A stretch of 27,934 nucleotides of DNA from contig CAWKAR010000037.1 of the NCBI GenBank assembly GCA_963847625.1, positions 1 to 27,934 on the forward strand. The letters are read 5' to 3'. Below the pieces are notes generated by a model, which had not been told where the DNA came from, did no database searches, and saw only the letters and a program-made list of their open reading frames with translations. Of this stretch, positions 4,416 through 23,225 are shown one piece after another (within the stretch, counting starts at the first letter, position 1; every line of letters starts with the position of its first letter). The position numbers and the translations under genes are program-made. Source of the stretch: a candidate division FCPU426 bacterium. GTDB taxonomy: Bacteria > Oederibacteriota > Muellerivitia > Muellerivitales > Muellerivitaceae.

Positions 4416-4676
4416 TAAGTCAAAAATCATTCTCTGCAGATAAAAAACTGACATTTTTTCCAATTTTTTCAAGTTACAGAAAAATTTCAGAAACAAACAA
4501 TTCGTTTGGGTGCCAAATATTAGGTATTTTCTTGTGCAATTTTCCCAATAAATACGGGATAAAAAATTCTTTACTACTCGGTTTTAACGTTAATGAAGTT
4601 CAGATGACCTCTCTTTGTTTCATTCTTTGGGACTTTGCCATTCAAACACCGAAAACTTGGAATGGTTTTTGCGAGT
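4416..4676 (+). promoter_or_regulatory. Sigma-54 promoter with upstream tandem enhancer-like boxes (copy 1)
   Basis: GTCAAAAATCATTC 4419-4432 and GATAAAAAACTGAC 4439-4452; TTTAACGTTAATG 4583-4595; TTGGAATGGTTTTTGC with GG 4659-60 and GC 4671-72 (GG-N10-GC); same layout at 10546 and 22958. Confidence 0.75.
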
Positions 4677-4767
4677 AGTAAATAAGTCCTATAAAAAAGC
4701 GTTTTTATGCAAGTTTAAATGTGAATTGATTTAAAGACAAATGGGTTAAAGCGGGGAAAGGTTTGTA

Positions 4768-5151
4768 ATGGAAGACATGTCTTTTGCGGCGCGGGAGATG
4801 GTTACCGGACACGAGGCGGTCACCCTGGAGGTGGATGGATCGCTGGATGTCAACACGGCCGGGATTTTGGAATCCACGCTCCAGGATCTCGTGATGAAAA
4901 GGAATAAGTACCGGATCATCCTCAACCTGGAAAACCTTTCCTATATCTCAAGCGCCGGCATCGGGGTTTTAATGCGTTTCACCCAACTCACCCGGAAAAA
5001 CCACGGGGATATCCTGCTCACCCATGTGAACCACGAGATTTACAATGTTTTCGAGATGTTGGACCTGACCAAGATATTTCAAATCCTGAAAACCCAGCAG
5101 GACGCGTTAGGCGCGTTCGGGGAGAACCGTTTTTTCCAATCCCAAAGATGA
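4768..5151 (+). CDS. STAS-domain anti-sigma-factor antagonist (SpoIIAA/RsbV family)
   Basis: VTLEVDGSLDVNTA...IILNLENLSYISSAGIGVL...IYNVFEMLDLTKIF; conserved phospho-acceptor Ser in ISSAG. Confidence 0.92.
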   Translation: MEDMSFAAREMVTGHEAVTLEVDGSLDVNTAGILESTLQDLVMKRNKYRIILNLENLSYISSAGIGVLMRFTQLTRKNHGDILLTHVNHEIYNVFEMLDLTKIFQILKTQQDALGAFGENRFFQSQR

Positions 5152-5178
5152 AACGAAGATGCTTTGAGGAGAGTACCG

Positions 5179-5550
5179 ATGTTTGAAGCCAAGCTATTCG
5201 TCGAGAACCGGGTTTACCGGAGAATGCTGTTGAAGATCAACGTCGGATACCGGTTGATATTGGAGCAGCAGGAAATCGAGCTGGTCCTCCTCCGCCGGAA
5301 AAACGACCAGAACGCCCGGACCAAGGACATCAGCTTGGGCGGCATGTACATCCTGGCGGATCATGTCTTGAAAGTGGGTTACCTCCTGCGCCTCTATATT
5401 TCGCTTCAAGAAGGCGGGAAAATCCTGGCGCCCCTCGCCGAGGTGGTGTGGACCAATGGAAAGGGAAGCGGCCTGCGGTTTTTATCCATGCGCCACGAGG
5501 AAAAAGAACAATTGAGGGCTTACTTGGAAAAGGTTTCTTTTTCCAATTAG
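5179..5550 (+). CDS. Stand-alone PilZ-domain protein (putative c-di-GMP receptor)
   Basis: GAGGAG RBS at 5166-5171, ATG 5179; RxxxR (RVYRR) and DxSxxG (DISLGG) motifs, AEVVW...GLRF...EQLRAYL. Confidence 0.9.
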   Translation: MFEAKLFVENRVYRRMLLKINVGYRLILEQQEIELVLLRRKNDQNARTKDISLGGMYILADHVLKVGYLLRLYISLQEGGKILAPLAEVVWTNGKGSGLRFLSMRHEEKEQLRAYLEKVSFSN

Positions 5551-5671
5551 ACGTCGTAAAATAACCCTGCTGAAAAAAACTTAAACGCGCACATGAACGT
5601 TGCGTGAACATTTACCCGCTGTGTGAAATCATCCCCTGACAGGCCCATTCTCAGCCCCGGAGTCATCGAAA

Positions 5672-6292
5672 ATGTATTTTATTCCGAAGATTTTTTCCTC
5701 TTTACTCAAGCAATCCAAAGATACCGATTATCCTTCCCAATACAAACAGTTAAAGAAAGCCATAAAAGCCAACGAGGATGATGACAACTTGAAGGCCCGG
5801 TTTATCAAGTTATGCCTGGTGACCCACATGGCGGGTACGGAAATCCCCGAAAGCCACCTGGCGGAGGTTTTGGATCTGTTTGAGAAAGTCATCCGCGCGG
5901 AGAACTTCGACCTGGAAATCCATTACCTGGTCGGCCGGCATTACCAGGGGAAGGCGGATTCACGGGCCCGCCGGGTGTACCTGGACGGCCTTGCCCAGTT
6001 CAACCAGAACATCCAAAAGTCCCCCTTCCTCAAATCCGACCATATGGACCTGGCGTACGCCATCGCCCTGAACCTCCTTCCGCTTCAAGAGGGCGGTGTC
6101 GACCCGGAACTTGAAAAGTTCTTCCAAATCGTGCGCAAGTCCTACCCGATTCACGCCAAGTGGTCCGAGATCGAGAAGGAGTTGGGGCAGCACAAGGCCG
6201 ACAAAGCACGCCTCCAAAAGCTGACCGAGGAACTCCGACAGCTCAAGTTGCAAAAAGACCTGGACCGGACCAAACACGTCAGGAAAAACTGA
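5672..6292 (+). CDS. Hypothetical all-helical protein (TPR-like) with C-terminal coiled coil
   Basis: 206-aa ORF with host-like codon usage, GGAG upstream; LFEKVIRAENFDLEIHYLVGRHY...ARRVYLDGL is TPR-like. Confidence 0.7.
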   Translation: MYFIPKIFSSLLKQSKDTDYPSQYKQLKKAIKANEDDDNLKARFIKLCLVTHMAGTEIPESHLAEVLDLFEKVIRAENFDLEIHYLVGRHYQGKADSRARRVYLDGLAQFNQNIQKSPFLKSDHMDLAYAIALNLLPLQEGGVDPELEKFFQIVRKSYPIHAKWSEIEKELGQHKADKARLQKLTEELRQLKLQKDLDRTKHVRKN

Positions 6293-6430
6293 CAATCCAT
6301 TCGGATTCCAATAGGTTTTAACAAGAAATTTCCAAGCCCTCGCCCGTCGAGGAAGACTTTCCCCTAAGGTTTTCCATCCTTGAAAATCCGCGCCAAAAAC
6401 TCCTCAATTTTCATGGTTTTTTTACTATTT

Positions 6431-6470
6431 TTAAAAAGTTCGGATTAAATCGGCTATTTGCCGTCTAGAG
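6431..6470 (+). promoter_or_regulatory. Conserved upstream motif AAAAAGTTYGGATTAAATC-N5-TTTGCCGTCTA (candidate alternative/ECF sigma promoter)
   Basis: Near-identical copy at 7897-7931 upstream of the paralogous lipoprotein; degenerate copy at 8912-8930. Confidence 0.55.
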
Positions 6471-6512
6471 ATTAGGAAATGGGATCAACCTCATTTATCC
6501 CCGGAGTCAAGT

Positions 6513-7802
6513 ATGAATCGGGATCTTCTTCTTCACACCACGGCCCTTTTGGTTTTGGGGGTATTCGCCCTAATAGCTGGATGCTCCAAAGAATTTAGAA
6601 CGCCTTCCATGCCAATGCTGCCCGCAACCAACACCCCGATTTTAACCGCTACCACTACACCCCTCATTCCGACGAACACACCAACGGATTCGATGACGCC
6701 TATGGCGTCCCTCACCGCTACGCCAACGGCTTCGCCCACGTTGACGCCCACGTCCACGATGACTTCGACCGATACGCCGACGGATACCAGCATCCCAACT
6801 GATACACCTACACCCATCTTTACCGTTACTCCTACCTCGACCTTTACCCCCATAGTCCCTACGGTTACTTCCACAGATACGATGACGGATACATACACCC
6901 CAACTGATACGCGTACACCCATTCCACCTGTACCCACGATGACACCCACGCCCACATTCACAATGGTTCCGTACATTACAGCAACGTTCACCCCAACGAT
7001 AACTCCCACGCCCACCCTGACCTACACCCCTTTTCCCACTTATACGCCCACTGATACCTCCACCCCCTGCATGGTGAACGGCAACACCTGCACACCCTCG
7101 GAGACTTTCACCCCAACGAATACATCCACTCCGACCAACACCTCCAACATTACCAGTACCCCAACCCGCACGCCGACTTCGACACCCACATCAACCCCGA
7201 CATCCACACCTACAACGACCCCCACAACTACACCATCCTCAACCCCTACCACAGATTGTAGATTAGTTAATTTTTATGTTACAAACGGGGCCAATACTGT
7301 TTCGTGCGGGACAACGGCAACGTTTAGTTGCGCTCTTGGGGCTGCTAATCCCAGTTGCGGATACAACACCAATTATACATTGTGTGGAATCGGCTTCAGC
7401 GTTTCCCTTACTGGCAACCTTTCGAGCCAAATTCTGGAAGTGCAAGGACCCACAACCACCACAACTTTGGCAGATAGCACGTTTTATTATGAAAGTCCGT
7501 ACCTTGGCAATCCGGTTTACCTTAGTTTTGTGCTTTCCCCGACGGCTTCAGGGCTGATTTATGTGACCTTCAGCAGCGCATGGGGTAAGACGTCCGCGGC
7601 TCCCGTGGTGGGCGGGGGTTTCATCATTTCAAACGTGTCTAACCCCGGCGGACCGATAACTGTCATATGTAATAATCCCACTTCGACCCCTACAACCTCC
7701 CCCACACCCACGCCAACCAACACGCCCACGTCTACGCAAACGAATACAATGACACCCACAGCTACCTTAACATCCACACCTACATCCACCCCCACGCCCT
7801 AA
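6513..7802 (+). CDS. Thr/Pro-rich lipoprotein with a Cys-bracketed beta-rich domain
   Basis: Lipobox-like LIAG-C after an h-region; about 210 aa of TPT repeats; domain C-RLVNF...[13 protein letters not shown]...[11 protein letters not shown]...NPGGPITVIC; TP tail. Confidence 0.85.
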   Translation: MNRDLLLHTTALLVLGVFALIAGCSKEFRTPSMPMLPATNTPILTATTTPLIPTNTPTDSMTPMASLTATPTASPTLTPTSTMTSTDTPTDTSIPTDTPTPIFTVTPTSTFTPIVPTVTSTDTMTDTYTPTDTRTPIPPVPTMTPTPTFTMVPYITATFTPTITPTPTLTYTPFPTYTPTDTSTPCMVNGNTCTPSETFTPTNTSTPTNTSNITSTPTRTPTSTPTSTPTSTPTTTPTTTPSSTPTTDCRLVNFYVTNGANTVSCGTTATFSCALGAANPSCGYNTNYTLCGIGFSVSLTGNLSSQILEVQGPTTTTTLADSTFYYESPYLGNPVYLSFVLSPTASGLIYVTFSSAWGKTSAAPVVGGGFIISNVSNPGGPITVICNNPTSTPTTSPTPTPTNTPTSTQTNTMTPTATLTSTPTSTPTP

Positions 7803-7896
7803 ATGATTGGGGGGGAGCTTTTGAGCCAGCTGGCTTTTTTTGCCCATAAAATCAACCAAAATCCCCTGAAAAATAAGGGTTTTTTAATTATTTTGA

Positions 7897-7935
7897 AAAA
7901 AGTTTGGATTAAATCCGCCGTTTGCCGTCTATAGG
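7897..7935 (+). promoter_or_regulatory. Second copy of the GGATTAAAT...TTTGCCGTCTA upstream motif
   Basis: GGATTAAAT 7906-7914 and GCCGTCTA 7924-7931, same spacing as 6442/6460. Confidence 0.55.
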
Positions 7936-8007
7936 TAAGAAATTGTGAAATGCCCCATTTAGCCCTATTTCACCATTTCGGATTCCAATTTATTTCCGGA
8001 GGTAAGT

Positions 8008-8847
8008 ATGGATCGAAAGTTTATTTTTCAAGGCACAATTTTTTTGGCGGCGTTGATCATCGGAATCGTGTCGGGTTGCACAAAAAACTCCAATATCCCT
8101 TCCTCGCCGGTACTTTCGGATCTCAACGCGCCGGCATCCGCCAACCAGCGTGATCCCCGTTTTGGGTTCCCGCGAAAATCACCGACGCCCACCCCGACCA
8201 AGAAACCCTCCCGCACGGCCACCCCCACGAGAACGCCCCTCCCCACCAACACCCCGGTCAACATTAATACTCCCACGAACACACCCACGCCCACCCCGAC
8301 CTTCACCTCAACCAACACTTCGACCATTACCGGCACGTCAACTCCTACATCAACTTCGACATCCACTTTGGTACCAACCTTAACCCCCACCCCAAATTGC
8401 AGTTTGGTCAATTTTTCCATTTCAAATGCGGCCAACACGGCTTCGTGCGGGACTACGGCAATAGTAAATTGTTTTTTTCAGACGGCTACATACAGTTGCA
8501 TTAACCTTAATGATTACGTGCTGACTGGAATCTCCTTCAGCGTTTCCCTCACGGGCAACCTTTCGAGTCAAATTCAGAAAGTGCAATTATGGAGCAACGC
8601 AGGCGGTACTGGCTCTTTGGTGGCCACCGTGTCAGGGAGCACGGCCACTTTTTCCGGATTGTATCTTCCCACTGGCTATATATCGATTGGTTACGTGCTT
8701 TCCCCAACAGCTTCAGGACAGATTTACACGGCCCTTAACTATGCATACGGAACTGGGACTGTAGGTTTCACCGAGTCATTGGTGACTAACCCCAGCGGAC
8801 CGATAACTGTCGAATGTAGTACGCCCACGCCCACCTCCACGCCATAA
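8008..8847 (+). CDS. Thr/Pro-rich lipoprotein, paralogue of 6513-7802
   Basis: GGAGGT RBS; lipobox-like IVSG-C; shared blocks [37 protein letters not shown]. Confidence 0.85.
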
Positions 8848-9002
8848 GAGATTATTTGGAACACTCGGGAGATCGTTACCAACGCGTTGGAGCCTGGGCG
8901 CGGGAAAGAGGGCCGTTTGCCGTGGATAGGGAAGAAATCGTGAAAAGTAGGTTTTAAGCCCATTAAACATTTTCGGGTTGTCGTCCGGATCTGGAGGCAA
9001 GT

Positions 9003-9242
9003 ATGTATCGAAAGCCGGTTCTTCAGGAAACAACCCTTTTGGGTAGGTTGGTTCTCGTCATCGAAGCCGGATGCCCTCAAAACGTTAATCTTTCTTTCGC
9101 GCCCATGAAACACGTTAATTCCCAAGCCTTCACGGCCAAGAATAACTCCCGCAATTCGTTTGCGCCGAACCCTTCAAAACCGTCAATCCTTAAAGCTTTT
9201 CTCCTTTTTTTGGCTGGGAACTGCGACCGCCGGATTGATTGA
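9003..9242 (+). pseudogene. Degenerate remnant of a third lipoprotein paralogue (leader and signal peptide only)
   Basis: MYRKPVLQETTLLGRLVLVIEAGC aligns without gaps to [24 protein letters not shown]; upstream GCCGTTTGCCGT..ATAGG.AAGAAAT.GTGAAA and GGAGGCAAGTATG match the 8008 leader with the same 84-nt GCCGT-to-ATG distance; no TP stalk or domain follows. Confidence 0.65.
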
Positions 9243-9281
9243 AGGGTTATCGGAGAAATTTAGGGAAGGTGCCCTACTCGG

Positions 9282-9746
9282 TCAGGATTTGATTTGAGGC
9301 GGGGCGGGGAACTTCAAATCCCTTTTTTCCTTGTCCAGCAGCATGCGCTCGAACAACCGCAGGTATTCCTTTTTGAGTTGGGAGACCGATAAGCCGCGGT
9401 GTTGGTTCGCGTCGAATTTTTCACCGAGATATTCCTGGCCCTGGCGGATGAATGACAGCAAAGCCCCCACTTCCTCTTGGTTGGAGGAGTCGGAGCCCGG
9501 TTCGATGACGAATCGCATGCGGATCCCCTCGCGGTAGCGGCCAAATTGGTCTTCGCTGGGATTGACGATGCCGGAAATTTTACCGGTATATTTCTCCAGG
9601 AAGAAAAGAAGATCCACTTCCCGGCCATAAAGTTCCGAGGCTTGAGTTGTTGGTTCTCCTCCGACCTCGGACGGCAATGAGGCCCCGCATTTCCCGCAAT
9701 ACATGTTTTTGTGTTCGTTGATCGTGCCGCAATGGACGCATTTCAT
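9282..9746 (-). CDS. Zinc-ribbon-domain protein (N-terminal CxxC-x10-CxxC)
   Basis: Likely start is M60 of the listed ORF (ATG 9746, GGAG RBS at 9756-9759); MKCVHCGTINEHKNMYCGKCGASL. Confidence 0.8.
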   Translation of the reverse strand: MKCVHCGTINEHKNMYCGKCGASLPSEVGGEPTTQASELYGREVDLLFFLEKYTGKISGIVNPSEDQFGRYREGIRMRFVIEPGSDSSNQEEVGALLSFIRQGQEYLGEKFDANQHRGLSVSQLKKEYLRLFERMLLDKEKRDLKFPAPPQIKS

Positions 9747-10083
9747 TGAATGGTTCTCCCAAAATGACAAGATGAGGGCCCCGGGAATTTCCCCGGCATT
9801 TTCCTCTTTTTTTGATAATGTTACTAACGGTTTCTCTTGGAATAACTTGAGCTCGAACCGGGAATGCCCGGCACCCCGGGAGAGCCCAACCGGGGTTTCC
9901 CGAAAGGCCTTGCCCGCAACCATGTCAGGTCCTATATGGTTGTTTATGAGGAAAAATGTCCTGAATTTGCTGTTAAAAACGAACGGCGGATTTTGTTTAG
10001 TAACTTATCGGAACGCGCCTTCGTCCAACAATTGGGTTGCACATATAACCCAAAATTCCGCTGAAAAGCAATGGAGGACTTAC

Positions 10084-10329
10084 ATGAGGAAATTATTCGC
10101 CGTGTTGATGACGGTCGCTTTCCTGGGGTCGACTGGCTTGGTTTTCGCCCAAGCCCCAGGCGCCGCCGGCCAAGCCACCCCGGTTGTTAAATCGGGAAAA
10201 GTTTGCGACAAGAGCAAGAAAGAATGCAAAGGCAAGAAAGGGCTCAAGGGCAAGAAAGAGTGCAAAGGCAAGAAAGTGTGCAGTAAGGACAAAAAGGGAG
10301 TCGCCACTCCCACCGCCGCGGGTAAATAA
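10084..10329 (+). CDS. Small secreted Lys/Cys-rich protein (81 aa)
   Basis: GGAGG RBS at 10073-10077; signal peptide MRKLFAVLMTVAFLGSTGLVFA; KKECKGKK twice; followed by a terminator. Confidence 0.8.
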   Translation: MRKLFAVLMTVAFLGSTGLVFAQAPGAAGQATPVVKSGKVCDKSKKECKGKKGLKGKKECKGKKVCSKDKKGVATPTAAGK

Positions 10330-10363
10330 AAAGCGTCCTTCTTTAAATTATTGTCGGTTGCTC

Positions 10364-10399
10364 AACCCCCGGTTCCCGCGAACCGGGGGTTTTTTATTT
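10364..10399 (+). terminator. Rho-independent terminator
   Basis: 12-bp perfect stem AACCCCCGGTTC / GAACCGGGGGTT, 4-nt loop, T-rich tail. Confidence 0.9.
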
Positions 10400-10545
10400 G
10401 GGGCCCCTCAAACGGCGGATCTCTTTTTCGCAGGCAAGCTTAAAGGTCAGTGCGGGTTACGCTGTTTTCCCCCGAACGAAATCTTTACCCCCTTTTGGAT
10501 ATTTCCTTTCCATTCTAAAAACTTACCTTTTTTAGACCTTATCGG

Positions 10546-10797
10546 TAAGTCAAAAAACATCCTTTTCCCGCTAAAAAACTGACATTTTGGGCCCATTTCC
10601 CCGGTCGGAGAATAATGGAAGGGACTAAAAACCCGTTTGATACCCCGATTTTTGGGCTGGATTCCCAAAAAACACCCGGAATAAAAATTGTTTTTCGGCT
10701 TATTTTAGCGTTTACCGTGGTGAGAGGACCGTTACCAGGTTGGTTTTTTATGATTTTTCAATGAAAACCCCGGGTTTTGGAATAGTTTATGCGAATA
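10546..10797 (+). promoter_or_regulatory. Sigma-54 promoter with upstream tandem enhancer-like boxes (copy 2)
   Basis: GTCAAAAAACATCC 10549-10562 and GCTAAAAAACTGAC 10570-10583; TTGGAATAGTTTATGC with GG 10779-80 and GC 10791-92. Confidence 0.8.
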
Positions 10798-10802
10798 ACC
10801 CT

Positions 10803-10838
10803 AGAGATGAGTCTTTTAGAAGAGATGAGTCTTTTAGA
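10803..10838 (+). repeat. Perfect 18-bp tandem duplication at the predicted transcription start
   Basis: AGAGATGAGTCTTTTAGA x2. Confidence 0.9.
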
Positions 10839-10863
10839 TATGAAGGTTTACGTAAGGTAAAAT

Positions 10864-13800
10864 ATGTTGCTATTTCAAATCCAGGCGATGACGACGGCTA
10901 AACGAATGGCAAAAAAAGAATCCTTTTCATTTTCACGGACCTCTTCCCGGGCGTTCAAGATTTCCTTGGCGCTGCTGGGCCTATTGCTGTTATGGGAATC
11001 CCCCTCGCGGTCTTGGGCCCAAACATGCACGCCGACCTCCGCCCAAATTTGCGTGGCCAGCGACGACTGGTCACAGGTCTACGTTGGCGGAGTTTACCTG
11101 GGCCAAATCGCCTACTGTAACTGGGACGGCACTGGCGTCTGTCCCCCGGGCTGTATCTCCGTCCCCACTTCCCTGATCTCGGGAAGCCAGGTTTATGTTT
11201 CCATCTATACCCAAAACACCGCCTGCAACAACGTGTACAGCTCCTGGGACCTGGACATCACCTGTTCCGGCGGAAACCATTCCCAGATCACCACCACAAG
11301 CGGCGGCATCAAGTTGGACTATATCAGCACGGGGAACCCCACCACTCCCCCGGCGAGCAACTGGTATGCGACCAACTACACCGGCATCACCGGTACTCCG
11401 GTGCAGGTCAGTACTTCCTCGGGTAATTGCTGTTGGAGCCAATCCCTCTACAATCCCTCGACCGGCGCCCAGATCCCCTATTTATCCGGCACCAGCGACG
11501 GGGATTACAGCACGAGTAATTGCAACGGCGCCCTTTTCTTCTCCCAGTCCACCACGATTCCTCCTCCTGTCCCTCCCCCTCCCGCGACGAACATCACCCT
11601 CACTAAAAGTTTCGTGGGCTGGTCGAGCAACGGGAGCGGGAACGCGAACGCCGTGACTTTTACGGGATACCAGCAAAACGACAGCCCCGCGGACAGGGAT
11701 GTCACCATCGCCTTGAAGGCCTGCAATTCGGGCCATTGGGTTTCGGGCGCGGTCACCTTCACCGATACCGGGATCTCCGGTGGCTCGACATTCTTCTGGA
11801 GCGAGGGCTTCCGGAGCTCCGTTTTGGGCATCACGAACAAGGGATTCGGGCCTCCCCCCGACTCCAACGGTTTTTACTACGACTGGGACGCCACGGTGAC
11901 CATGATCGGATCGAAAGGTTTCCCCGGGGCTTCCTATAACGGAAGCGGCTGGGTGCCCTATTGCTGGACAGTCACCATTACAGGAACGGACAACACGAGT
12001 AACGCCGTTTACGACTGCCTGACGCGGACAAACAGTTTCTCGATGCTCAACCCCGCCGTCACGTCTAATTCCATCACCTACGTCATGAACTGCTCCACCA
12101 ATACCTTTACGCCGACTTATACCTATACCCATACCAACACCCCGACCCCCGCTGTCACTCCCACCTTCACACATACCAACACTTATACCTATACCTATAC
12201 CTACACGCCGACGCGAACCCCCACTCCCACCCCGACCCCGACGATCACCCCCACGCCCACTCCGACCAATACGCCCACGAACACGCCGACCCGAACGAAC
12301 ACCCCCACGCCGACCAATACCCCCACGAACACCCCAACCCGAACCCCGACCCCGACCCCGACGGTCACCCCCACGCCCACTCCGACCAATACCCCTACTA
12401 ACACCCCGACCCCGACGGTCACCCCCACGCCCACTCCGACCAATACCCCCACGCCCACGCCGACCCGGACCCCCACTCCCACGCCCACAGTATCCCCCAC
12501 TCCCACGCCGACAAACACCCCCACGAACACGCCGACCCGCACGCCCACTCCCACACCCACAGTATCCCCTACCCCGACGCCGACCAATACGCCCACGAAC
12601 ACCCCGACCCGTACGCCTACCCCCACGCCGACGACAAGCCCCACGCCCACTCCGACCAATACGCCCACGAACACCCCGACCCGGACGCCTACTCCCACCC
12701 CGACGACAAGCCCCACCCCGACGCCGACCAATACGCCCACGAACACGCCGACTAGGACCCCCACTCCTACGCCCACAGTATCCCCCACCCCGACGCCGAC
12801 CAATACGCCCACGAACACCCCGACCCGTACGCCTACCCCCACGCCCACAACCACGCCCACCCCCACCCCGACGAACACACCCACGAACACTCCCACGAAC
12901 ACACCCACCCCCACCCCGACGACAAGCCCCACTCCCACGCCGACCAACACACCCACGAACACGCCGACCCGGACCCCCACGCCGACCCCGACAACGACCC
13001 CCACGCCCACGCCGACCAATACGCCAACTAATACGCCCACGCGCACACCCACGCCCACCCCGACGACCACCCCCACATTCACCCCGACCAATACACCCAC
13101 GAGGACGCCCACCCCGACGCCGACCCCTACGCCCACCATCACCCCGACGCCCACCCCCACATTCACCCCGACCAACACACCCACGGCGACCCTCAGCCCG
13201 ACAGGGACGGCCCAGCCTACGTGGACCCCGACCAACACACCCACGCCCACGCGCACGTCCACGCCCACTCCCACGCCCACCATTACCCCCACGCCCACGC
13301 CCACGAACACGCCCACTTCAACCCCGACCCGGACGCCCACCCCGACCCCGACGACGACACCCTCGCCCACGCCGACCAATACCCCGACGAACACTCCGAC
13401 GAACACTCCGACCCCCACCCCGACGACAACTCCCTCACCCACGCCCACGAACACCCCGACGAACACGCCCACGCGCACACCCACGCCCACCCCGACGACC
13501 ACCCCCACATTCACCCCGACCAATACACCCACGAGGACGCCCACGCCCACGCCGACCCCCACGCCCACCATCACCCCGTCGCCCACCCCCACGAACACCC
13601 CCACGAACACGCCCACGGCGACCCTCAGCCCGACGGGGACGGCCCAGCCCACGTGGACCCCGACCAACACACCCACGCCCACGCGCACGTCCACGCCCAC
13701 TTCCACGCCCACCATCACACCCTCGCCCACGCCGACGAATACCCCGACGAACACCCCCACAAACACTCCGACCCCGACCCCGACGACAACACCCTCGCTC

Positions 13801-15915
13801 ACCCCGACGAATACCCCGACTCGCACACCCACAGCCACACCGACCCCCACGCCCACCATCACCCCGTCGCCCACCCCCACGAACACGCCGACGAACACGC
13901 CTACGGCGACCCTCAGCCCGACGGGGACGGCCCAGCCCACGTGGACCCCGACCAATACGCCGACTTCCACAACGACTCCCACGTCGACTCCCACGCCAAC
14001 AGTCACGCCTTCGCCCACTCCCACCAACACCCTCACCTCGACTCCGACCCCCACGCCCACTTCAACCCCGACGACGACCCCCACGCCGACTTTGACGGGC
14101 ACCCCCAGCGACACCCCGACCTCGACCGAAACCCCCGTCTTCACGTATACGCCCACCCCCACGCCGACAGAAACCGACACACCCACGAATTCCAGCACCC
14201 CCACGGACACATCGACACCGACGCCTAGCAACACCCCGACTTCCACGCCCACGGTGACCAACACCAGGACCGACACGCCCACGCCGACTGAAACGGACAC
14301 TCCCACCAATACCAACACTTCTTCCGAAACGCCGACGGTCACCCCGACGTCCACAACGACGGACACGCCCACCGCGACCTTGTCACCGACGCCGAGCAAC
14401 ACCCCGACGAATACCTCCACAGTCACCAACACGAGTACGGACACGAATACGCCGACGCAAACTTCCACGCCCACGGATACCAACACCCCGACGCCGACCT
14501 TCACCTTGACGAACACCCCCACGGCGACCAACACGAGAACGAGCACCAACACCTTGACGCAGACTTCCACGCCGACCTCTACTTTCACTCCCACGCCGAC
14601 GGCCACGGCGACATTCACGCTGATTTCTACGCCCACCTTCACGCTCACCCCCGCGGCGGTGGTGACGCTGCAAAAGCAGGAATCGGAGTCGGCTGGCACG
14701 TCAGGGGACCAGGTGACCTACACCTTGGCGTTGAAGGTGACCAATAACAGCGCAGTCTCCCTGGTGGTGCAGGATGCCCTCCCTGGCAACTGCAGTTTCG
14801 TGACGTTCGGGGCCTCCCCGGCCAACACGTCGACCTCGCTGAACGTGACGGGAGGCGTGACGGTGATGAACTGGGCTTTGCCCACCCTGGCACCGGGGAA
14901 CTACCTTCTGACCTACATAGTTTCGATCAACAACTTCACGCAGGCGGGGCCGATCACGAACTGCGCGGTCATGACCTATCCGGGGGCCGCGCCCCAGACG
15001 GCTTGCGCGACACTGCAGGTGACGGGTAGTTACACGGTGAAGGTGGGGGTGTACAACGAGGCGGGGGAACTGGTGAAGGAACTGCTGGTGACGCAGTATT
15101 CCCAGCCTTTGGTGAACCTGCTATTGCAGAACGGGAACCTGATCAGCGGGCTGAACGACCCGGTGTCGATCTACGACCTGAACCATGAGATCGGGGCCTG
15201 GGACGGGACGGACCAGAACGGGAACCCGGTGCCCAACGGGGATTACTACGTGAAGGTGGACAATATTGACTCGTTCGGGGCGGACAAGAGCGTGGTGTTG
15301 AACGTGGTGGTGAGCCGTTCGCTGGAGAAAGTGACGATCGACATCTACAACGAGGCAGGGGAGATCGTGCAGACGCTGTACAGCGTGGTGGAGGACCCGC
15401 AGGGGACGGTGATCACGGGGGTGAAGCTGTCAAGCACGGTGTTGGAGCCCGGGTCGCCGACGGACGGGACGCTGGTGATCGCGACGAACAACGGGGTGAC
15501 GACGGTATGGGACGGGCACGGGTCGGGGGGGACGGTGGTGCCCAACGGGAAATACTTCATCGAGTTGCACTCGACGGACGGGAAGGGCGGGGAGACGGTG
15601 ATCATTACGTCGGTGGTGGTGGTGAACGGGGTGAAACAGGCGGCGCCGAGGGTGTGGGCATATCCGAACCCGGTGACGGGCGGAACGAGGCTGGTGACAT
15701 TCCAGGGATCGTCGGCAGGGGTGAAGCTGACGGTAAAGATCTACGACGTGGCGGGCGAGCTGGTGACGGAACTGCAAGGGGCGGGCGGGGCGAGCCAGGT
15801 GACATGGAACGCGGCGGGGATCGCCAGCGGCTTATACATCGCCAAGACCGAGCAGAGGGACGCCAACGGGTACGTGGTCGCCAGGCAGACCCTCAAGATC
15901 CTGGTGGAACAGTGA
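10864..15915 (+). CDS. Giant secreted surface protein 1: Cys-rich jelly-roll/lectin-like tip, DUF11-like domain, Thr-Pro stalk, DUF11, two FlgD-Ig-like modules, T9SS type-A-like C-terminal sorting domain
   Basis: Signal peptide ending [20 protein letters not shown]; about 850 aa of TxTx repeats; LQKQES...GDQVTYTL...[13 protein letters not shown] (DUF11); [12 protein letters not shown]...[18 protein letters not shown] (FlgD-Ig); YPNP...IYDVAGELV...ASGLYI...KILV tail. Alternative start ATG 10906. Confidence 0.88.
12097..14652 (+). repeat. Thr-Pro low-complexity coding repeat (about 24-aa basic unit with higher-order blocks)
   Basis: [21 protein letters not shown](T/V)SP units; landmark [13 protein letters not shown] occurs three times. 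Confidence 0.95.
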
Positions 15916-16005
15916 AAATGGACAGGCTCGCTCAGTGCGGTTTTGCCCATTTTGTAGTACCGTTTAAACGAGTAAAAATTGAAAATGTTTATGGAGGCTT
16001 ATATC

Positions 16006-17301
16006 ATGAATAAAAAGGACCGGTTTTACGGAATCCTGGCCCTGGGGGTATCCACCCTTCTTCTTTACGGCGGCTGCAGCCGGAACCTACCCACGGCAGG
16101 CCCAACCCCCACCCCCTTGATTACCAGCAAGGCCACCACCTGCACGGCCTCCCAGGCGAACAACTGCCTGTCCTCCAACCTTTACAATTTTTACCAGTCC
16201 CAGTCCGGCAACGTTTTTTTCTCGCCCTTCAGCATCATCACGGCCATGGCCATGGCCCAGGAAGGGGCGGTAGGCAACACCGCCACCCAGATGCAGAACG
16301 TGTTGAACTTAAGCAGCAACGCCGCCGTCCGGCAACAGGGTTTCCAGCAGTTGATCAGCGAGATCAACGCCCCGGGCAAGCATTACACCCTCGACACGGC
16401 CGATAACCTCTGGATCCAGCAGGGATTTCCCATCCTGGCTTCCTATATCAACACCTGCCAAACCTATTACGACGCGGGGGTCACGGACGTGGACTTTGTG
16501 AATAACCCCTCGGGGGCCTTGCAGTTGATCAACAGCACCGTTTCGCAGGAAACCAAAGGGTACATCCCCAAACTTTTGGATCAAAGCGCCATTACTTCGC
16601 AGACAAGGCTTATCCTGACCAACGCGATTTATTTCAAGGGCACCTGGCAAAGCCAGTTCGTCACTACGGGCACCGTTCCGCAAACTTTCTTTCTTGACCC
16701 GGCGACGACTGAGTCCGTCAGCATGATGCACCAGACCCTAAATGCCGTGGTGGGAAATTATAACGGGGCGGCCAGCGTGCTCGCGATCCCCTACCAGAAC
16801 AGCGAAGCTTCCATGTACATTTTCCTTCCGCCGGAAGGGGGGATGGCGGCCCTGGAGGGCGTTATGAGCGGAGACAATCTCAACTCCTGGCTGGCGTCCA
16901 ACGCGGCGACCATGACCAGCACCAGTTCCTGGAATCCACAAGTGGCCTTGGCCCTGCCGAAATTTACTTTCAGCACCAGTTATAATTTGAGCGGCACCTT
17001 GTCGCAAATGGGAATGCCCTTGGCTTTTACCCCGAAAGCGGCTGATTTTTCAGGAATCGATGGAATGAGGGATTTATTCATTTCATTCGTGATTCATAAG
17101 GCCTATGTCGATGTGGATGAAACCGGCACGGTCGCCGTCGCGGCGACCGGTGTGGGAATATCGACGACTATGATTGTGGCGTATCAACCGCCGCCAATAC
17201 CCTTCATTGTCGACCATCCCTTCATTTTCATGATCATCGAGAACGCCACCAACACGATCCTGTTCATGGGCAGGGTGAACGATCCGCTTTCCACGAGTTA
17301 A
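16006..17301 (+). CDS. Serpin family protease inhibitor, lipoprotein
   Basis: GGAGG RBS at 15993-15997, ATG 16006; lipobox-like YGG-C; NVFFSPFSI, LTNAIYFKGTW, LPKF, ADFSGI, HKAYVDVDETGTVAVAAT hinge, FIVDHPFIFMI, ILFMGRVNDP. Confidence 0.95.
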   Translation: MNKKDRFYGILALGVSTLLLYGGCSRNLPTAGPTPTPLITSKATTCTASQANNCLSSNLYNFYQSQSGNVFFSPFSIITAMAMAQEGAVGNTATQMQNVLNLSSNAAVRQQGFQQLISEINAPGKHYTLDTADNLWIQQGFPILASYINTCQTYYDAGVTDVDFVNNPSGALQLINSTVSQETKGYIPKLLDQSAITSQTRLILTNAIYFKGTWQSQFVTTGTVPQTFFLDPATTESVSMMHQTLNAVVGNYNGAASVLAIPYQNSEASMYIFLPPEGGMAALEGVMSGDNLNSWLASNAATMTSTSSWNPQVALALPKFTFSTSYNLSGTLSQMGMPLAFTPKAADFSGIDGMRDLFISFVIHKAYVDVDETGTVAVAATGVGISTTMIVAYQPPPIPFIVDHPFIFMIIENATNTILFMGRVNDPLSTS

Positions 17302-17333
17302 GACAAGGATTCTTAACGGCAGGTAAAAACTAA

Positions 17334-20300
17334 ATGAAAAGATTGGAATTTAAGGAAAATATGCCAAAAAAAGATGGTTCTTTTTTTCATCGATACGTAA
17401 GTTTTTTACTCGTCTCGGCCCTGGCCGCCTGCTCGGTCCTGCCCGCGAACGCGGCGTTGGTCACCAAAACCTCGAACAGCCCGTCCTATATGCCGTGCGA
17501 CTCCGTCACTTACACCCTTGTGGTGCAACCGGGTGACACGTCATCGGAACTGCTGGATTCCTACCCGATGACCAGCATGCCCTCGGGTTGGACCAATGCG
17601 GGGACGTCCAGTAGCGGCGCGACTTTTGGCTGGGCCGGGGCTTCCTGGGGAGTCCGTGCGGAGCAGGGAGGGTGTTCGGGGTTGAATTACGGCCCTTACG
17701 CTTCCTCGGCGGTAAGCCAGTATCCGCAAATCATTTCCAACGTCTCAGTCGGGCCGGATGTTGAGTTCTACTACGAGGCCTGTCTTCCCCTCTCGGCTTA
17801 TTCGGGGGACGACGACGAAGTTTTTATCGCCCGCTATTCAAGCTGCCAGCAATACTTTATGATCCGGGGCGACCAATGGCAACTCAGCGACACCTGCAAC
17901 GGCACCAGCAGGCTTTTCTACGATACGGTGACGCCCAACGGGTCCTGCAGCCAAACCACCTGGACGGACGGGAATAACAGCACTACAACCCAGGCCAGCG
18001 TCCCCTGCATCTCGCGTAACAACTGGTTTTCCTACCGGGTGCGCATCTGCGCCAACCAGATCATGGCGAAAATATGGCAAACCGGCACGGCGGAACCCGG
18101 CTGGCAGTTGACCGTCACGGACGCTAACCTGAACACCTATTCCACTGGCGACTTCGGTTTCCAGGCCAACCAGGGTGATATCACTTTCCGGAACCTCAGC
18201 GTTTACAATATTGCCGCGGAAACCGGCGTCACCGTCACGGACCCCCTGCCCAGTTGTTTCACCTATACCAGCAGCACCTGCGGGACTGTCTCGGGCGGCA
18301 CCCTCACCTGGAGCGTCGGCAGCCTGGCCGCCTGCGCGACCCCCGTCACCTGCACCGTGATTGAGAAAGTCGGGACGGCTTGCAGCGGCAACTATACGAA
18401 CACGGCGTCCGTCACCAGCAGCGCGGGAACGGGCGTGGCGGGCGCGGTGACAGTCGGCGTAAACCCAGTTGCGATATCGAAAACCAACACCGCGGTTCCG
18501 GCCAGCATTGTGGGGGGAAGCGCCATCACGGGCCGCATTTCCGCCTGTAATAACGGGACCGTCACGCAACAAGCGTTGACATTGACCGATGTTGTCACGA
18601 ATTACCCCCGGTTTGTCGGTTTCAGCGGCGAAGTCAACGGCGGCAATATGAACGACGCCAACACGCATGTGACGGGCGCGGGAGTGTCCTATTACGCGCC
18701 TACCGGAAACACTTCTCCCTCGACCATTGTTTATCTCGGCTTACCGCCGGGCAAATGCGTCACCTTTGAGGTTCGTTATCAGTGGGACAATCCTCCCGCG
18801 GCCTGCCAGGTAATTACGGATTATGGGGAGTTAGTGACTGGCTGTTCCGTGACCACGGCTTCCATTTCCGTCACCCAACAGTGCATCACGCCGACCTTCA
18901 CCAATACCTATACCCTGACTTATACCTATACCCCGACCCGGAGCCCGACTCCCACCCCGACGAATACCCCCACCCCCACTCCCACCCGGAGTCCGACCCC
19001 GACACCCTCGCCGACACCCTCGCCGACTCCCTCGCCCACGCCTACCAACACCCCGACCCGAACCAACACGCCCACTCCCACAGTATCCCCCACCCCGACC
19101 CCGACCAACACGCCCACGCGCACGCCCACTCCCACGCCGACCCCGACCACAAGCCCCACTCCCACGCCGACCAATACCCCTACTAACACCCCGACCCGCA
19201 CGCCCACTCCGACACCCACAACCACGCCCACCCCCACCCCGACCAATACGCCCACGAACACGCCGACCCGGACCCCCACTCCCACGCCCACAGTATCCCC
19301 CACCCCGACGCCGACCAATACGCCCACGAACACCCCGACCCGCACGCCCACTCCCACGCCCACAGTATCCCCCACCCCCACCCCGACCAATACGCCCACG
19401 AATACGCCGACCCGCACGCCCACTCCGACACCCACAACCACGCCCACCCCTACCCCGACCAATACGCCCACGAACACCCCGACCCACACACCCACCCCCA
19501 CGCCCACAGTATCCCCCACCCCGACGCCGACCAATACGCCCACGAATACGCCGACCCGCACGCCCACTCCGACACCCACAACCACGCCTACACCCACCCC
19601 GACCAATACGCCTACGAACACGCCGACCCGCACGCCCACTCCGACACCCACAACCACGCCCACCCCCACCCCGACGAACACACCCACGAATACTCCCACG
19701 AACACACCCACCCCCACCCCGACGACGACCCCTACGCCCACGCCGACGAATACCCCGACGAATACGCCGACCCGCACGCCCACTCCGACCCCGACGACGA
19801 CCCCCACGCCCACGCCGACCAATACGCCCACGAACACGCCCACGCGCACACCCACTCCGACCCCAACAACCACCCCCACTCCCACGCCGACGAATACCCC
19901 GACGAACACGCCGACTCGGACCCCTACTCCCACTCCGACGATCACGCCCACGCCGACGCCTACCAACACACCCACGAACACGCTTTCGCCGACCCCCAGC
20001 CCGACCGGGACCACCTCACCCACGAACACCCCAACCAACACACCCACGCCCACGCGCACGTCCACGCCCACTCCCACGCCCACCATTACCCCCACGAACA
20101 CGCCCACGAATACCCCGACCCGGACGCCCACCCCGACCCCGACGACGACACCCTCGCCCACGCCGACCAATACCCCGACGAACACTCCGACGAACACTCC
20201 GACTCCGACACCGACGACGACCCCCACGCCCACCCCGACTAATACACCCACGAACACGCCCACGCGCACACCCACGCCCACCCCGACGACCACCCCCACA

Positions 20301-22922
20301 TTTACCCCGACCAATACGCCCACGAGGACGCCCACGCCCACGCCGACCCCCACGCCCACCATCACCCCGTCGCCCACCCCCACGAACACCCCCACGAACA
20401 CGCCCACGGCGACCCTCAGCCCGACGGGGACGGCCCAGCCCACCTGGACCCCGACCAACACGCCCACGCCCACGCGCACGTCCACGCCCACTTCCACGCC
20501 CACCATCACACCCTCGCCCACGCCGACGAATACCCCGACGAACACCCCCACAAATACTCCGACCCCGACCCCGACGACAACACCCTCACCCACGCCCACG
20601 AATACCCCGACTCGCACACCCACAGCCACACCGACCCCCACGCCCACCATCACCCCGTCGCCCACCCCCACGAACACCCCCACGAACACGCCCACGGCGA
20701 CCCTCAGCCCGACGGGGACGGCCCAGCCCACCTGGACCCCGACCAACACGCCCACACCCACGCGCACCTCCACGCCCACTCCCACGCCAACCATCACACC
20801 CTCGCCCACGCCGACGAATACCCCGACGAACACCCCCACGAACACGCCGACCCCCACGCCCACCATCACCCCGTCGCCCACCCCCACGAACACGCCGACG
20901 AACACGCCTACGGCGACCCTCAGCCCGACAGGGACGGCCCAGCCCACGTGGACCCCGACCAATACGCCGACTTCCACAACGACTCCCACGTCGACTCCCA
21001 CGCCAACAGTCACGCCTTCGCCCACTCCCACCAACACCCTCACCTCGACTCCGACCCCCACGCCCACTTCAACCCCGACGACGACCCCCACGCCGACTTT
21101 GACGGGCACCCCCAGCGACACCCCGACCTCGACCGAAACCCCCGTCTTCACGTATACGCCCACCCCCACGCCGACTGAAACCGACACACCCACGAATTCC
21201 AGCACCCCCACGGACACATCGACACCGACGCCTAGCAACACCCCGACTTCCACGCCCACGGTGACCAACACCAGGACCGACACGCCCACGCCGACTGAAA
21301 CGAACACTCCCACCAATACCAACACTTCTTCCGAAACGCCGACGGTCACCCCGACATCCACAACGACGGACACGCCCACGCCAACCTTGTCACCGACGCC
21401 GAGCAACACCCCGACGAATACCTCCACGGTCACCAATACGAGGACGGACACGAATACGCCGACGCAAACTTCCACGCCCACGGATACCAACACCCCGACG
21501 CCGACCTTCACCTTGACGAACACCCCCACGGCGACCAACACGAGAACGAGCACCAACACCTTGACGCAGACTTCCACGCCGACCTCTACTTTCACTCCCA
21601 CGCCGACGGCCACGGCGACATTCACGCTGATTTCTACGCCCACTTTCACGCCGACCCCCGCGGCGGTGGTGACGCTGCAAAAGCAAGAATCGGAGTCGGC
21701 TGGCACGTCAGGGGACCAAGTGACCTACACGCTGATGCTAAACGTGAGTAATAACACTGCGACTGGGCTGGTGGTGCAGGATGCCCTCCCTGCCAACTGC
21801 AGTTTCGTGACGTTCGGGACCTCCCCGGCCAACACGTCAGCCTCGCTGAATGTGACAGGAGGCGTGACAGTGATGAACTGGGCTCTGCCCACCCTGGCAC
21901 CAGGGAACTACCTTCTGACCTACATAGTTTCGATCAACAACTTCACGCAGGCGGGGCCGATCACGAACTGCGCGGTCATGACCTATCCGGGGACCGCACC
22001 CCAGACGGCCTGCGCGATACTGCAGGTGACGGGGAACTACACGGTGAAAGTGGGGGTGTACAACGAGGCGGGGGAACTGGTGAAGGAACTGCTGGTGACG
22101 CAGTATTCCCAGCCTTTGGTGGACCTGCTATTGCAGAACGGGAACCTGATCAGCGGGTTGAACGACCCGGTATCGATCTACGACCTGAACCATGAGATCG
22201 GGGCCTGGAACGGGACGGACCAGAACGGGAACCCGGTGCCCAACGGGGATTACTACGTGAAAGTGGACAATATCGACTCGTTCGGGGTGGACAAGAGCGT
22301 GGTGTTGAACGTGGTGGTGAGCCGTTCGCTGGAGAAAGTGACGATCGACATCTACAACGAGGCAGGGGAGATCGTGCAGACGCTGTACAGCGTGGTGGAG
22401 GACCCGCAGGGGACGGTGATCACGGGGGTGAAGCTGTCAAGTACGGTATTGGAGCCCGGGTCGCCGACGGACGGGACGCTGGTGATCGCGACGAACAACG
22501 GGGTGACGACGGTATGGGACGGGCACGGGTCGGGGGGGACGGTGGTGCCCAACGGGAAATACTTCATCGAGGTGCACTCCACGGACGGGAAGGGCGGGGA
22601 GACGGTGATCATTACGTCGGTGGTGGTGGTGAACGGGGTGAAACAGGCGGCGCCGAGGGTGTGGGCATATCCGAACCCGGTGACGGGCGGAACGAGGCTG
22701 GTGACATTCCAGGGATCGTCGGCAGGGGTGAAGCTGACGGTAAAGATCTACGACGTGGCGGGCGAGCTGGTGACTGAACTCAATGGAGCGGGCGGGACGA
22801 GCCAGGCGACCTGGAACGCGGCTGGGATCGCCAGTGGCTTATACATCGCCAAGACCGAGCAGAGGGACGCCAACGGCTACCTGGTCGCCAGGCAGACCCT
22901 GAAGATCCTGGTAGAGCAGTAA
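17334..22922 (+). CDS. Giant secreted surface protein 2: DUF11-type Ig domains with an inserted ConA/DUF1080-like beta-sandwich, Thr-Pro stalk, and a C-terminal module near-identical to protein 1
   Basis: Signal peptide ending ANA-A (likely start ATG 17361, AAGGA RBS); VTKTS...VTYTL [insert [20 protein letters not shown]...[22 protein letters not shown]] [14 protein letters not shown]; same DUF11/FlgD/YPNP tail. Confidence 0.88.
18888..21659 (+). repeat. Thr-Pro low-complexity coding repeat
   Basis: Same units as 12097-14652; [13 protein letters not shown] x3 and [12 protein letters not shown] x1. Confidence 0.95.
20948..22922 (+). repeat. ~2-kb near-identical, gap-free duplicate of 13941-15915
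   Basis: Both segments are 1975 nt from the last ...[14 protein letters not shown] to the stop; about two dozen amino-acid differences by eye, clustered in DUF11. Confidence 0.92.
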
Positions 22923-22957
22923 GACCAGACGGATTGACTAACCTCCGCTTCGCCGGA

Positions 22958-23225
22958 TAAGTCAAAAAACATCCTTTTTCCGCTAAAAAACTGACATTTT
23001 GGGCTCATTTTTTCAGCCGGGGAGTCATTTTCAGAAAGTAACAACGTGTTTGACTGCCTCTTTTTAGGAAATTTTTTCTATGAATTTCCCAATAAAACCC
23101 CGGGGATAAAATTGCTTTACTGCCTTGATTTAACGTTAATGGTGTTTAAAAGGCCTATTTCCCTTTGATGTTTCGGTGATTTTTTGTTCTAAAACCTTAA
23201 ATTTTGGAATAGTTTATGCGAATAA
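22958..23225 (+). promoter_or_regulatory. Sigma-54 promoter with upstream tandem enhancer-like boxes (copy 3)
   Basis: GTCAAAAAACATCC 22961-22974, GCTAAAAAACTGAC 22982-22995, TTTAACGTTAATG 23129-23141, TTGGAATAGTTTATGC with GG 23206-07 and GC 23218-19. Confidence 0.8.

Follow-up and report, generated by a model that had tools for sequence, protein, structure and literature searches.

A predicted sigma-54 enhancer-promoter module at an RpoS-like sigma gene across a bacterial family and before giant surface protein genes in one genus

Why should one promoter arrangement precede genes as different as those for giant secreted proteins and those for a small STAS-PilZ operon? The question arises from contig C37, the 27,934-nucleotide stretch analyzed here (the window), of a candidate division FCPU426 genome (G000; 4.43 Mb, 94% complete), in which three regions carry the same sequence blocks. 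A first-pass annotation had interpreted these blocks as a sigma-54 enhancer/promoter module common to giant genes, a serpin and the STAS-PilZ pair, and had proposed an activator of the FleQ type that senses cyclic di-GMP (c-di-GMP). At the sequence level the module is real, and its conserved family-wide target, missed earlier, is an RpoS-like sigma factor gene that lies beyond the window. We propose that the window blocks are probably copies of a duplicated sigma-54 enhancer-promoter cassette, whose ancestral job was likely at this sigma gene and which was extended in this genus to giant proteins, serpins and STAS-PilZ. Overall, we see a real and well-supported predicted regulon, the main point of which is a family-wide link from sigma-54 to an alternative sigma factor that has expanded in one genus. 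Below, G001 denotes the sister species and other G numbers denote related genomes.

Copies of the module in the window and the genome

The repeated blocks were located exactly where the first pass had placed them. TAAGTCAAAAA starts at positions 4416, 10546 and 22958 of the window, AAAAAACTGACATTTT at 4442, 10573 and 22985, the mid-block TTTA(A/G)CGTT at 4583, 10704 and 23129, and TTGGAAT(A/G)GTTT(A/T)TGCGA at 4657, 10777 and 23204. Mean column identity in the alignment of the three regions is 72%. The spacings agreed with the earlier description for the half-boxes, which start 20-21 bp apart, and for the 195-210 bp from boxes to promoter; the distance from mid-block to TTGG is 73-75 bp, 1-2 bp under the 75-77 bp claimed. 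Between box and promoter, the three window copies and a fourth copy at C50:98576 have homologous spacers (z 10-15). Therefore, the common order and spacing of the window copies reflect descent, and because the spacer is common to the STAS-PilZ and giant copies, the STAS-PilZ operon appears to have captured a duplicated cassette. It had been argued that this is not simply gene duplication. That holds for the genes, since STAS and PilZ differ from the giants, but the cassette before STAS-PilZ does duplicate that of the giants.

A matrix scan of G000 for other members, proposed in the first pass, found 11 copies of the tandem box (GTCA...TGAC, 33-35 bp). The matrix was seeded with pattern search matches in G000, which comprised 11 similar tandem boxes. 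The 11 boxes score 37.8-45.1 (34.4-45.6 in leave-one-out) and are clearly separated from the next non-overlapping site at 18.6; the maximum of 10 column-shuffled matrices was 21.4. Each box is paired with a GG-N10-GC -24/-12 site directed toward a gene. This site lies 115-251 bp downstream of nine boxes and about 154 bp from the C27 and C46 boxes, which are inverted. Of 14103 intergenic anchor positions, 77 (0.55%) have a nearby match to the -24/-12 pattern, which was fitted after the sites had been seen; this count includes the true sites. The 11 box-promoter pairs are not chance. Across genomes, the sequences place the promoter 115-264 bp from the enhancer, in either box orientation.

Targets in G000 are seven giant Thr/Pro proteins, two serpins, the STAS-PilZ operon and a group-2 (RpoS-like) sigma-70 gene on C45. 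The copies represent about six spacer lineages, between which just the box and promoter are conserved; in a homology test that covered all copies other than C27 and C46, the C34 and C56 spacers were homologous to each other and the remaining tested copies stood alone. At least nine module copies occur in G001, including the STAS-PilZ arrangement. In an alignment of seven copies from the two species, the boxes, the mid-block (6/7) and the -24/-12 site are conserved and the remainder has diverged.

These alignments bear on the possibility that the sigma-locus copy alone is functional and that the window copies are upstream DNA that hitchhiked during duplication or recombination of giant genes. 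The homology of the window spacers (z 10-13) fits such a history, as do two G001 loci (L351:~10800-12100 and L043) at which a transposase-like open reading frame (about 305 amino acids, by eye) separates the promoter from the giant gene. Set against this, the seven aligned copies keep only boxes, mid-block and -24/-12 site, both elements are retained where the distance is 115-127 bp and where the box is inverted, and the G001 copies persist in their number. We consider hitchhiking highly improbable, and transcription from the predicted promoters very likely: GG-N10-GC stands at 11/11 boxes in G000 and 24/24 at the sigma locus, and the genome encodes RpoN and bacterial enhancer-binding proteins (bEBPs).

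The palindrome TTAACGTTAA, found in window copies 1 and 3, occurs five times in G000, three of them in one promoter descent group, and is kept in two G001 copies. The mid-block was unconvincing as an IHF site, with a one-mismatch match in just 2/4 copies that have a mid-block. A short direct duplication follows directly after the copy 2 promoter, at the predicted start (10800-10830). Sigma-54 sites without the motifs assigned here were also seen at G000:C5:5508(-), before another STAS-like gene, and at C27:108824(+), before a gene for a secreted protein.

The conserved target at the acyP-sigma locus

A phylum-wide search (31 family genomes and 68 genomes outside the family) found the module in 24/31 family genomes from 12 genera, in all 24 at the same locus. 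Here the order is box, acyP (acylphosphatase) and a sigma-70 gene of about 320-330 codons; in G000 it is ihfA, merR, two tRNA-Pro genes, box, acyP, sigma and apt. The ihfA-merR-tRNAPro...sigma-apt order appears to match that around deltaproteobacterial rpoS. Among the other genera (22 genomes, 11 genera), the sigma gene locus is the sole place where the module occurs. Two family genomes gave a second match, one within the acyP-sigma locus and one without a promoter. A whole-genome pattern search returned a single match in each of 12/18 genomes, always at acyP-sigma, and a reversed-pattern control returned none. Both box and promoter are present in 14/17 family genomes with a sigma orthologue, and both are absent in the other three and in the order outgroup. 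The seven family genomes without a module match include three with a sigma orthologue and two without one (85% and 63% complete). A relaxed box search of five module-negative genomes yielded 30 loci, none of them a convincing box-promoter pair.

The sigma-54 promoter lies about 110-130 bp before the sigma start codon where mapped, within the acyP reading frame; in G000 the predicted transcription start is near C45:39383. Across the 24 genomes, 12/17 positions of the -24/-12 site are invariant and the Glu codon within it is GAA in 24/24. Only 2/33 conserved amino-acid columns of acyP are single-codon, and both fall in the promoter site; the neighbouring sigma gene, used as a control, has 2/128 single-codon columns (14 genomes). 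Module-negative genomes use different codons at the acyP promoter-site columns. This codon freeze indicates selection on the DNA and not on the protein, and it is stronger evidence than box-promoter co-occurrence because the latter probably represents one event. Based on these data, an ancestral role of the module at the sigma gene appears likely.

The sigma protein matches regions 1.2-4, with no region 1.1 match, and its orthologues group in a clade that excludes RpoD, which G000 encodes separately as a 636-amino-acid protein. Its predicted architecture is thus RpoS-like (group-2). The window spacers were also compared with acyP as possible decayed copies; their z of 0.9-2.0 stayed within the range of the controls, which reached 2.8, and we rejected this candidate.

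Outside the family, the pattern matched in 10/68 genomes; of eight looked at, three, all from family f21, have a sigma-54 site. In these genomes (G083-G085; L348, L349, L350), tandem GTCA-N5-TGAC boxes stand 84-95 bp before the sigma-54 site. The next gene after the box in G085 encodes Cas3, suggesting a sigma-54-controlled CRISPR-Cas system in another family.

The candidate activator and related systems

As the first-pass model required, rpoN is present in G000. Five bEBPs carry a sigma-54-contacting, GAFTGA-like loop (G(A/S)(F/Y)T(G/D)A), and two further ones are degenerate. Several can be connected with other sites, although upstream motifs in the L003, L005, L006 and L002 neighbourhoods were judged by eye. 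L003 (TPR-AAA+-HTH, 626 amino acids; orthologues L191-L208) has its own tandem GTGTAA..TTACAC site, which stands with a sigma-54 promoter upstream of the adjacent gene in 17/18 loci. L005 lies among flagellar genes, where four promoters have another common motif, and L006 adjoins a sigma-54 promoter with a third upstream motif. L002, a NifA-like GAF protein, precedes glnA and adjoins a sigma-54 promoter with yet another motif. Elimination of these four leaves L004, a REC-AAA+-HTH regulator beside a HAMP-PAS membrane histidine kinase (G000:C60). L004 is 81-93% identical across 15/19 genomes, and an adjacent sigma-54 promoter is missing in 15/16 loci. We therefore lean, by a narrow preference, toward phosphorylated L004 as the activator. 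Phylogenetic profiling was non-discriminating: rpoN was found in 19/19 genomes (18 over cut-off), an L003 orthologue in 18/19, L004 in 15/19 and an L006-like protein in 16/19.

The same regulon could instead answer to L002 or another DNA-binding protein and respond to nitrogen or a metabolite. L002 scores 587 against a NifA equivalog cut-off of 529, is found in most family genomes, and the conservation of its own upstream motif is not clear. The NifA site is TGT-N10-ACA, and the right half-site of the box does end in ACA. The left half-site is AGTCA in 19/24 sigma-locus copies, however, and not TGTCA; the glnA promoter beside L002 has no such box; and L002 has a NifA-type TPRQ recognition helix, unlike the RTT of FleQ. 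This alternative seems unlikely to us.

A second alternative is the FleQ-like activator of the first pass, which would sense c-di-GMP directly and co-induce adhesins, serpin, STAS and PilZ. The box does resemble the FleQ consensus GTCAaAAAAtTGAC as given in the available part of PMC6120874, and in Pseudomonas GTCA-N6-TGAC-like tandem boxes likewise precede adhesin genes (PMC10723142 and PMC6120874, each in the portion available). The recognition helix of L004 begins with R-T, as does that of FleQ. In addition, G000 has 20 GGDEF and 23 PilZ matches, one of the latter being the intact PilZ protein behind the module. The resemblance is not identity, however. The site 2 consensus is TTCA-AAAAAC-TGAC and site 1 keeps GTCA alone; each box has a single perfect half-site. 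All sites pair with distal sigma-54 promoters, whereas FleQ biofilm boxes can overlap the start and repress, according to the accessible text on that system. The proposal of a FleQ-type sensor itself is not supported: PF06490, the FleQ N-terminal domain, has no match in the 94% complete genome, and the R144/R185/E330/R334 c-di-GMP residue set occurs in none of the seven bEBP-like proteins. L004 has K at R144, H at R185 and H at E330, and keeps just R334. The REC-type proteins L004-L006 retain the phosphoacceptor Asp, which the available part of PMC6120874 describes as missing from FleQ. Finally, PilZ is linked to the module in just two genomes, both from one genus. We regard direct c-di-GMP sensing by a FleQ-like activator as very unlikely.

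Other observations concern the remaining regulators. The L003 target in G000 looks, by eye, like an MraY/WecA-type glycosyltransferase. In the region G000:C20:22787-32418 (L048), four sigma-54 promoters with a common motif precede flagellar hook-type genes (FlgE/FlgD/FlgK-like by eye) around the two-component pair that includes L005; just 5/19 other genomes showed an L005 orthologue. A second sigma-70 paralogue at G000:C57:47374(-), with a 550-amino-acid frame, has an upstream sigma-54 site and a partial L006-type motif and may represent a second cascade. L007 and L008, which are paralogues of the REC-AAA+-HTH type, have a degenerate Walker A motif and no GAFTGA loop, and each stands beside a transposase-like reading frame; they could be sigma-54-independent regulators.

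The predicted circuit, with L004 as its candidate activator, resembles two known systems. The best-studied cascade from sigma-54 to sigma-S is Rrp2-RpoN-RpoS of Borrelia burgdorferi, for which the available part of PMC1976401 describes enhancer-independent activation, with no enhancer found and Rrp2 binding not detected. As in Borrelia, a sigma-54 promoter stands just upstream of a group-2 sigma gene, surface proteins are outputs further along the cascade, and the promoter is likely driven by a two-component system whose regulator is a REC-type bEBP. Unlike in Borrelia, 24 genomes of the family have a conserved tandem enhancer-like box, the promoter is set within acyP, the cassette also directly precedes surface-protein genes, and the sigma protein is below the RpoS family cut-off. 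Because the lineage is unrelated to Borrelia, the cascade would be convergent. The PrsK/PrsR system of PEP-CTERM bacteria similarly places a repeated enhancer and a sigma-54 site before many Ser/Thr-rich exported proteins and has a histidine kinase/NtrC-family pair that reads the enhancer, with a link to aggregation. There, as far as the accessible parts of PMC1569441 and PMC9850573 describe it, the box is TTTACA, the spacing is about 63 bp and sites are never within coding regions. Our module has a spacing of 115-264 bp, a different box and a type IX secretion system (T9SS)-like tail as the sorting signal; window proteins gave no PEP-CTERM match and L004 scored under the TIGR02915 cut-off (417 vs 502.6). 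By the features tested, the predicted module belongs to neither system.

Promoters inside genes have parallels as well. Conserved intragenic sigma-54 promoters drive the neighbouring gene at E. coli nagB and yqeC (PMC4591121, in its available part); unlike these, the promoter in acyP has a sigma factor gene as its target and a conserved enhancer upstream of the host gene. The accessible text of PMC12316311 reports sigma-54 promoters before sigma-70-family genes as a general trend, and that of PMC2725144 gives Geobacter fliA as an example.

Genes behind the module and a predicted two-tier response

Features of the window are collected in Table 1. The protein identities proposed in the first pass (STAS, PilZ, serpin, and giant proteins with FlgD-Ig domains and T9SS-like tails) were borne out by domain searches.

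Table 1. Module elements and genes of the window, by position
Feature	Position	Strand	Remarks
Tandem activator box, copy 1	4418..4453	+	GTCA ... TGACA half-sites; the two 14-bp sites are imperfect and lie 20 bp apart; matrix score 43.3
Palindrome TTAACGTTAA, copy 1	4584..4593	.	Restricted to promoters of one descent group
Predicted sigma-54 -24/-12 promoter, copy 1	4657..4673	+	GG 4659-60, GC 4671-72; predicted start ~4684
STAS anti-sigma-factor antagonist	4768..5151	+	127 amino acids; SSAG motif; PF01740 1.4e-13; TIGR00377 above cut-off
Stand-alone PilZ protein	5164..5550	+	Likely start ATG 5179; PF07238 1.4e-12
Protein of 206 amino acids, possible third operon gene	5672..6292	+	TPR-like by language-model features; no Pfam match; lead only
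Tandem activator box, copy 2	10548..10584	+	Matrix score 43.3
Mid-block, copy 2	10704..10714	.	Degenerate
Predicted sigma-54 promoter, copy 2	10777..10793	+	Predicted start ~10804
Giant secreted protein 1	10864..15915	+	1683 amino acids; signal peptide, predicted lectin/CBM67-like tip, Thr/Pro stalk, FlgD-Ig domains, T9SS-like C-terminal domain
Serpin with lipobox	15979..17301	+	Likely start ATG 16006; PF00079 7.4e-109
Giant secreted protein 2	17334..22922	+	1862 amino acids; N-terminus differs from protein 1; DUF11 domain; C-terminus alike
Tandem activator box, copy 3	22960..22996	+	Matrix score 43.3
Palindrome TTAACGTTAA, copy 3	23130..23139	.	
Predicted sigma-54 promoter, copy 3	23204..23220	+	Predicted start ~23231
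Giant secreted protein 3	23302..27934	+	Paralogue of protein 1 (74% in tip); ends at contig end

A 70% orthologue of the STAS protein with the identical module was found only in G001 among 19 genomes. PilZ receptors of c-di-GMP have the motifs RxxxR and (D/N)xSxxG. The PilZ target has both, as RVYRR and DISLGG, and both are kept in G001, so it is a candidate c-di-GMP receptor. Two Thr/Pro-rich predicted lipoproteins (6513-7802 and 8008-8847) have a common Cys-containing C-terminal domain and no Pfam match.

The giant proteins that carry the tip have Thr/Pro stalks of about 850-1000 residues. The gene for giant protein 2 lacks a module and probably shares the transcript from copy 2; the C56 gene for its 94% paralogue does have a module. 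We modeled the tip (188 residues), which giants 1 and 3 have in common, from a 30-sequence alignment, with a predicted local distance difference test (pLDDT) score of 86.9, compared to 39 for a single-sequence fold. Five chains matched the model at Z 8.2-10.1, with the next at 5.1, and the Foldseek E value was 0.008. The Pleurotus ostreatus lectin POL (PDB 6kbj) gave Z 10.1 with a root-mean-square deviation (rmsd) of 2.9 over 124 residues, and the non-catalytic domain of a GH78 rhamnosidase (PDB 3w5n), presumably CBM67, gave Z 9.3 with rmsd 3.4 over 127 residues. Like these domains the tip is a predicted beta-sandwich; unlike them it is mounted on a Thr/Pro stalk and has no Pfam match, with 13-19% identity. 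An Asp-Asp pair is invariant in the tip family. A lectin-like fold on a long stalk makes an adhesin or glycan-capture protein plausible, and a lectin or adhesin function is, on the modeled fold, the answer we moderately favor.

For all four serpins of G000 there is a module upstream; it stands directly before two of them, and a giant gene intervenes at the other two. Some giant genes without a module of their own sit in operons behind one. Homologues of the giants in other genera were inspected at 28 loci, together with 1.5 kb of flanking sequence, and none showed a module, although some of these matches are perhaps internal domains. Module-less close paralogues of the giants carry upstream palindromes (G000:C40:90852(-), C36:21171(+), C1:11243(-) and C19:52200(-)), which we take to be of the LacI/cre-like class. 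A degenerate palindrome also lies just past the predicted start at ~4693 and ~23233 of the window and at C50:98815, and hints at a second, sugar-responsive layer.

Several observations weigh against a cassette that began at the sigma gene, is read by L004 and serves surface adhesion. The 14 module-positive genomes in our tree probably form one clade, with weak support, and in a single clade box-promoter co-occurrence would be one gain. The sigma protein falls below the RpoS cut-offs (TIGR02394, 293.7 vs 378.7; PRK05657, 284.9 vs 394), and because it scores under the NCBIfam thresholds, RpoS orthology is not established. There is no clear acyP relic in the spacers, and the direction from sigma locus to giants is argued from distribution. 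L004 with an identical recognition helix occurs in the module-negative genomes G012, G017 and G019, where no convincing boxes were found and it would thus be without a known target; moreover, L004 was not found in the module-positive G005 and G009 (80% and 65% complete). Only 7/46 giant Thr/Pro genes are directly behind a module and 39/46 are not (30 upstream regions inspected). The module therefore does not define a general adhesin regulon. Lastly, a match of about 125 residues at Z 8-10 to lectins indicates fold and not function.

With these reservations, the sigma-54 cassette suggests the following model. The HAMP-PAS kinase would phosphorylate its partner L004, dimers of which would occupy the two half-sites, two helical turns apart. 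Looping to sigma-54 polymerase 115-264 bp away would then yield the open complex. At the sigma locus, where the promoter lies within the acyP frame, the induced transcript would therefore contain the sigma gene and no intact acyP. In a first tier, surface proteins and protease inhibitors would be induced directly; in a second, the response would proceed via the alternative sigma factor. STAS and PilZ, as outputs, could open the cell to control by partner switching and c-di-GMP, with c-di-GMP entering solely through PilZ as an output.

We consider it marginally the better supposition that an uncultured family has an independent cascade from sigma-54 to an RpoS-like factor through a promoter set in acyP codons, and that one genus, by copying the cassette, enlarged a regulon of one gene to an 11-promoter, feed-forward surface programme of lectin-tipped stalk adhesins, lipoprotein serpins, an anti-anti-sigma factor and a c-di-GMP reader. 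The surprise is limited in that sigma-54 surface regulons, intragenic promoters and sigma cascades each have precedent. We found no publication on the module or on regulation in this lineage in a search that left subscription journals mostly outside, and the promoter tables of PMC12316311 may list these promoters. The predicted circuit would give the lineage its first regulatory outline in the literature we could search, and a family of giant surface proteins hitherto without annotation gains a predicted lectin fold. With a 35-bp enhancer defined and a candidate kinase-regulator pair named, the circuit can be rebuilt and tested in E. coli. If the model is true, the family would hold a natural record of regulon growth, in which 11 genera have a single target, the twelfth has 9-11 and the duplication of the cassette is visible. 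It would be a regulon caught expanding, and a second, enhancer-dependent switch from sigma-54 to sigma-S beyond the spirochaetes.

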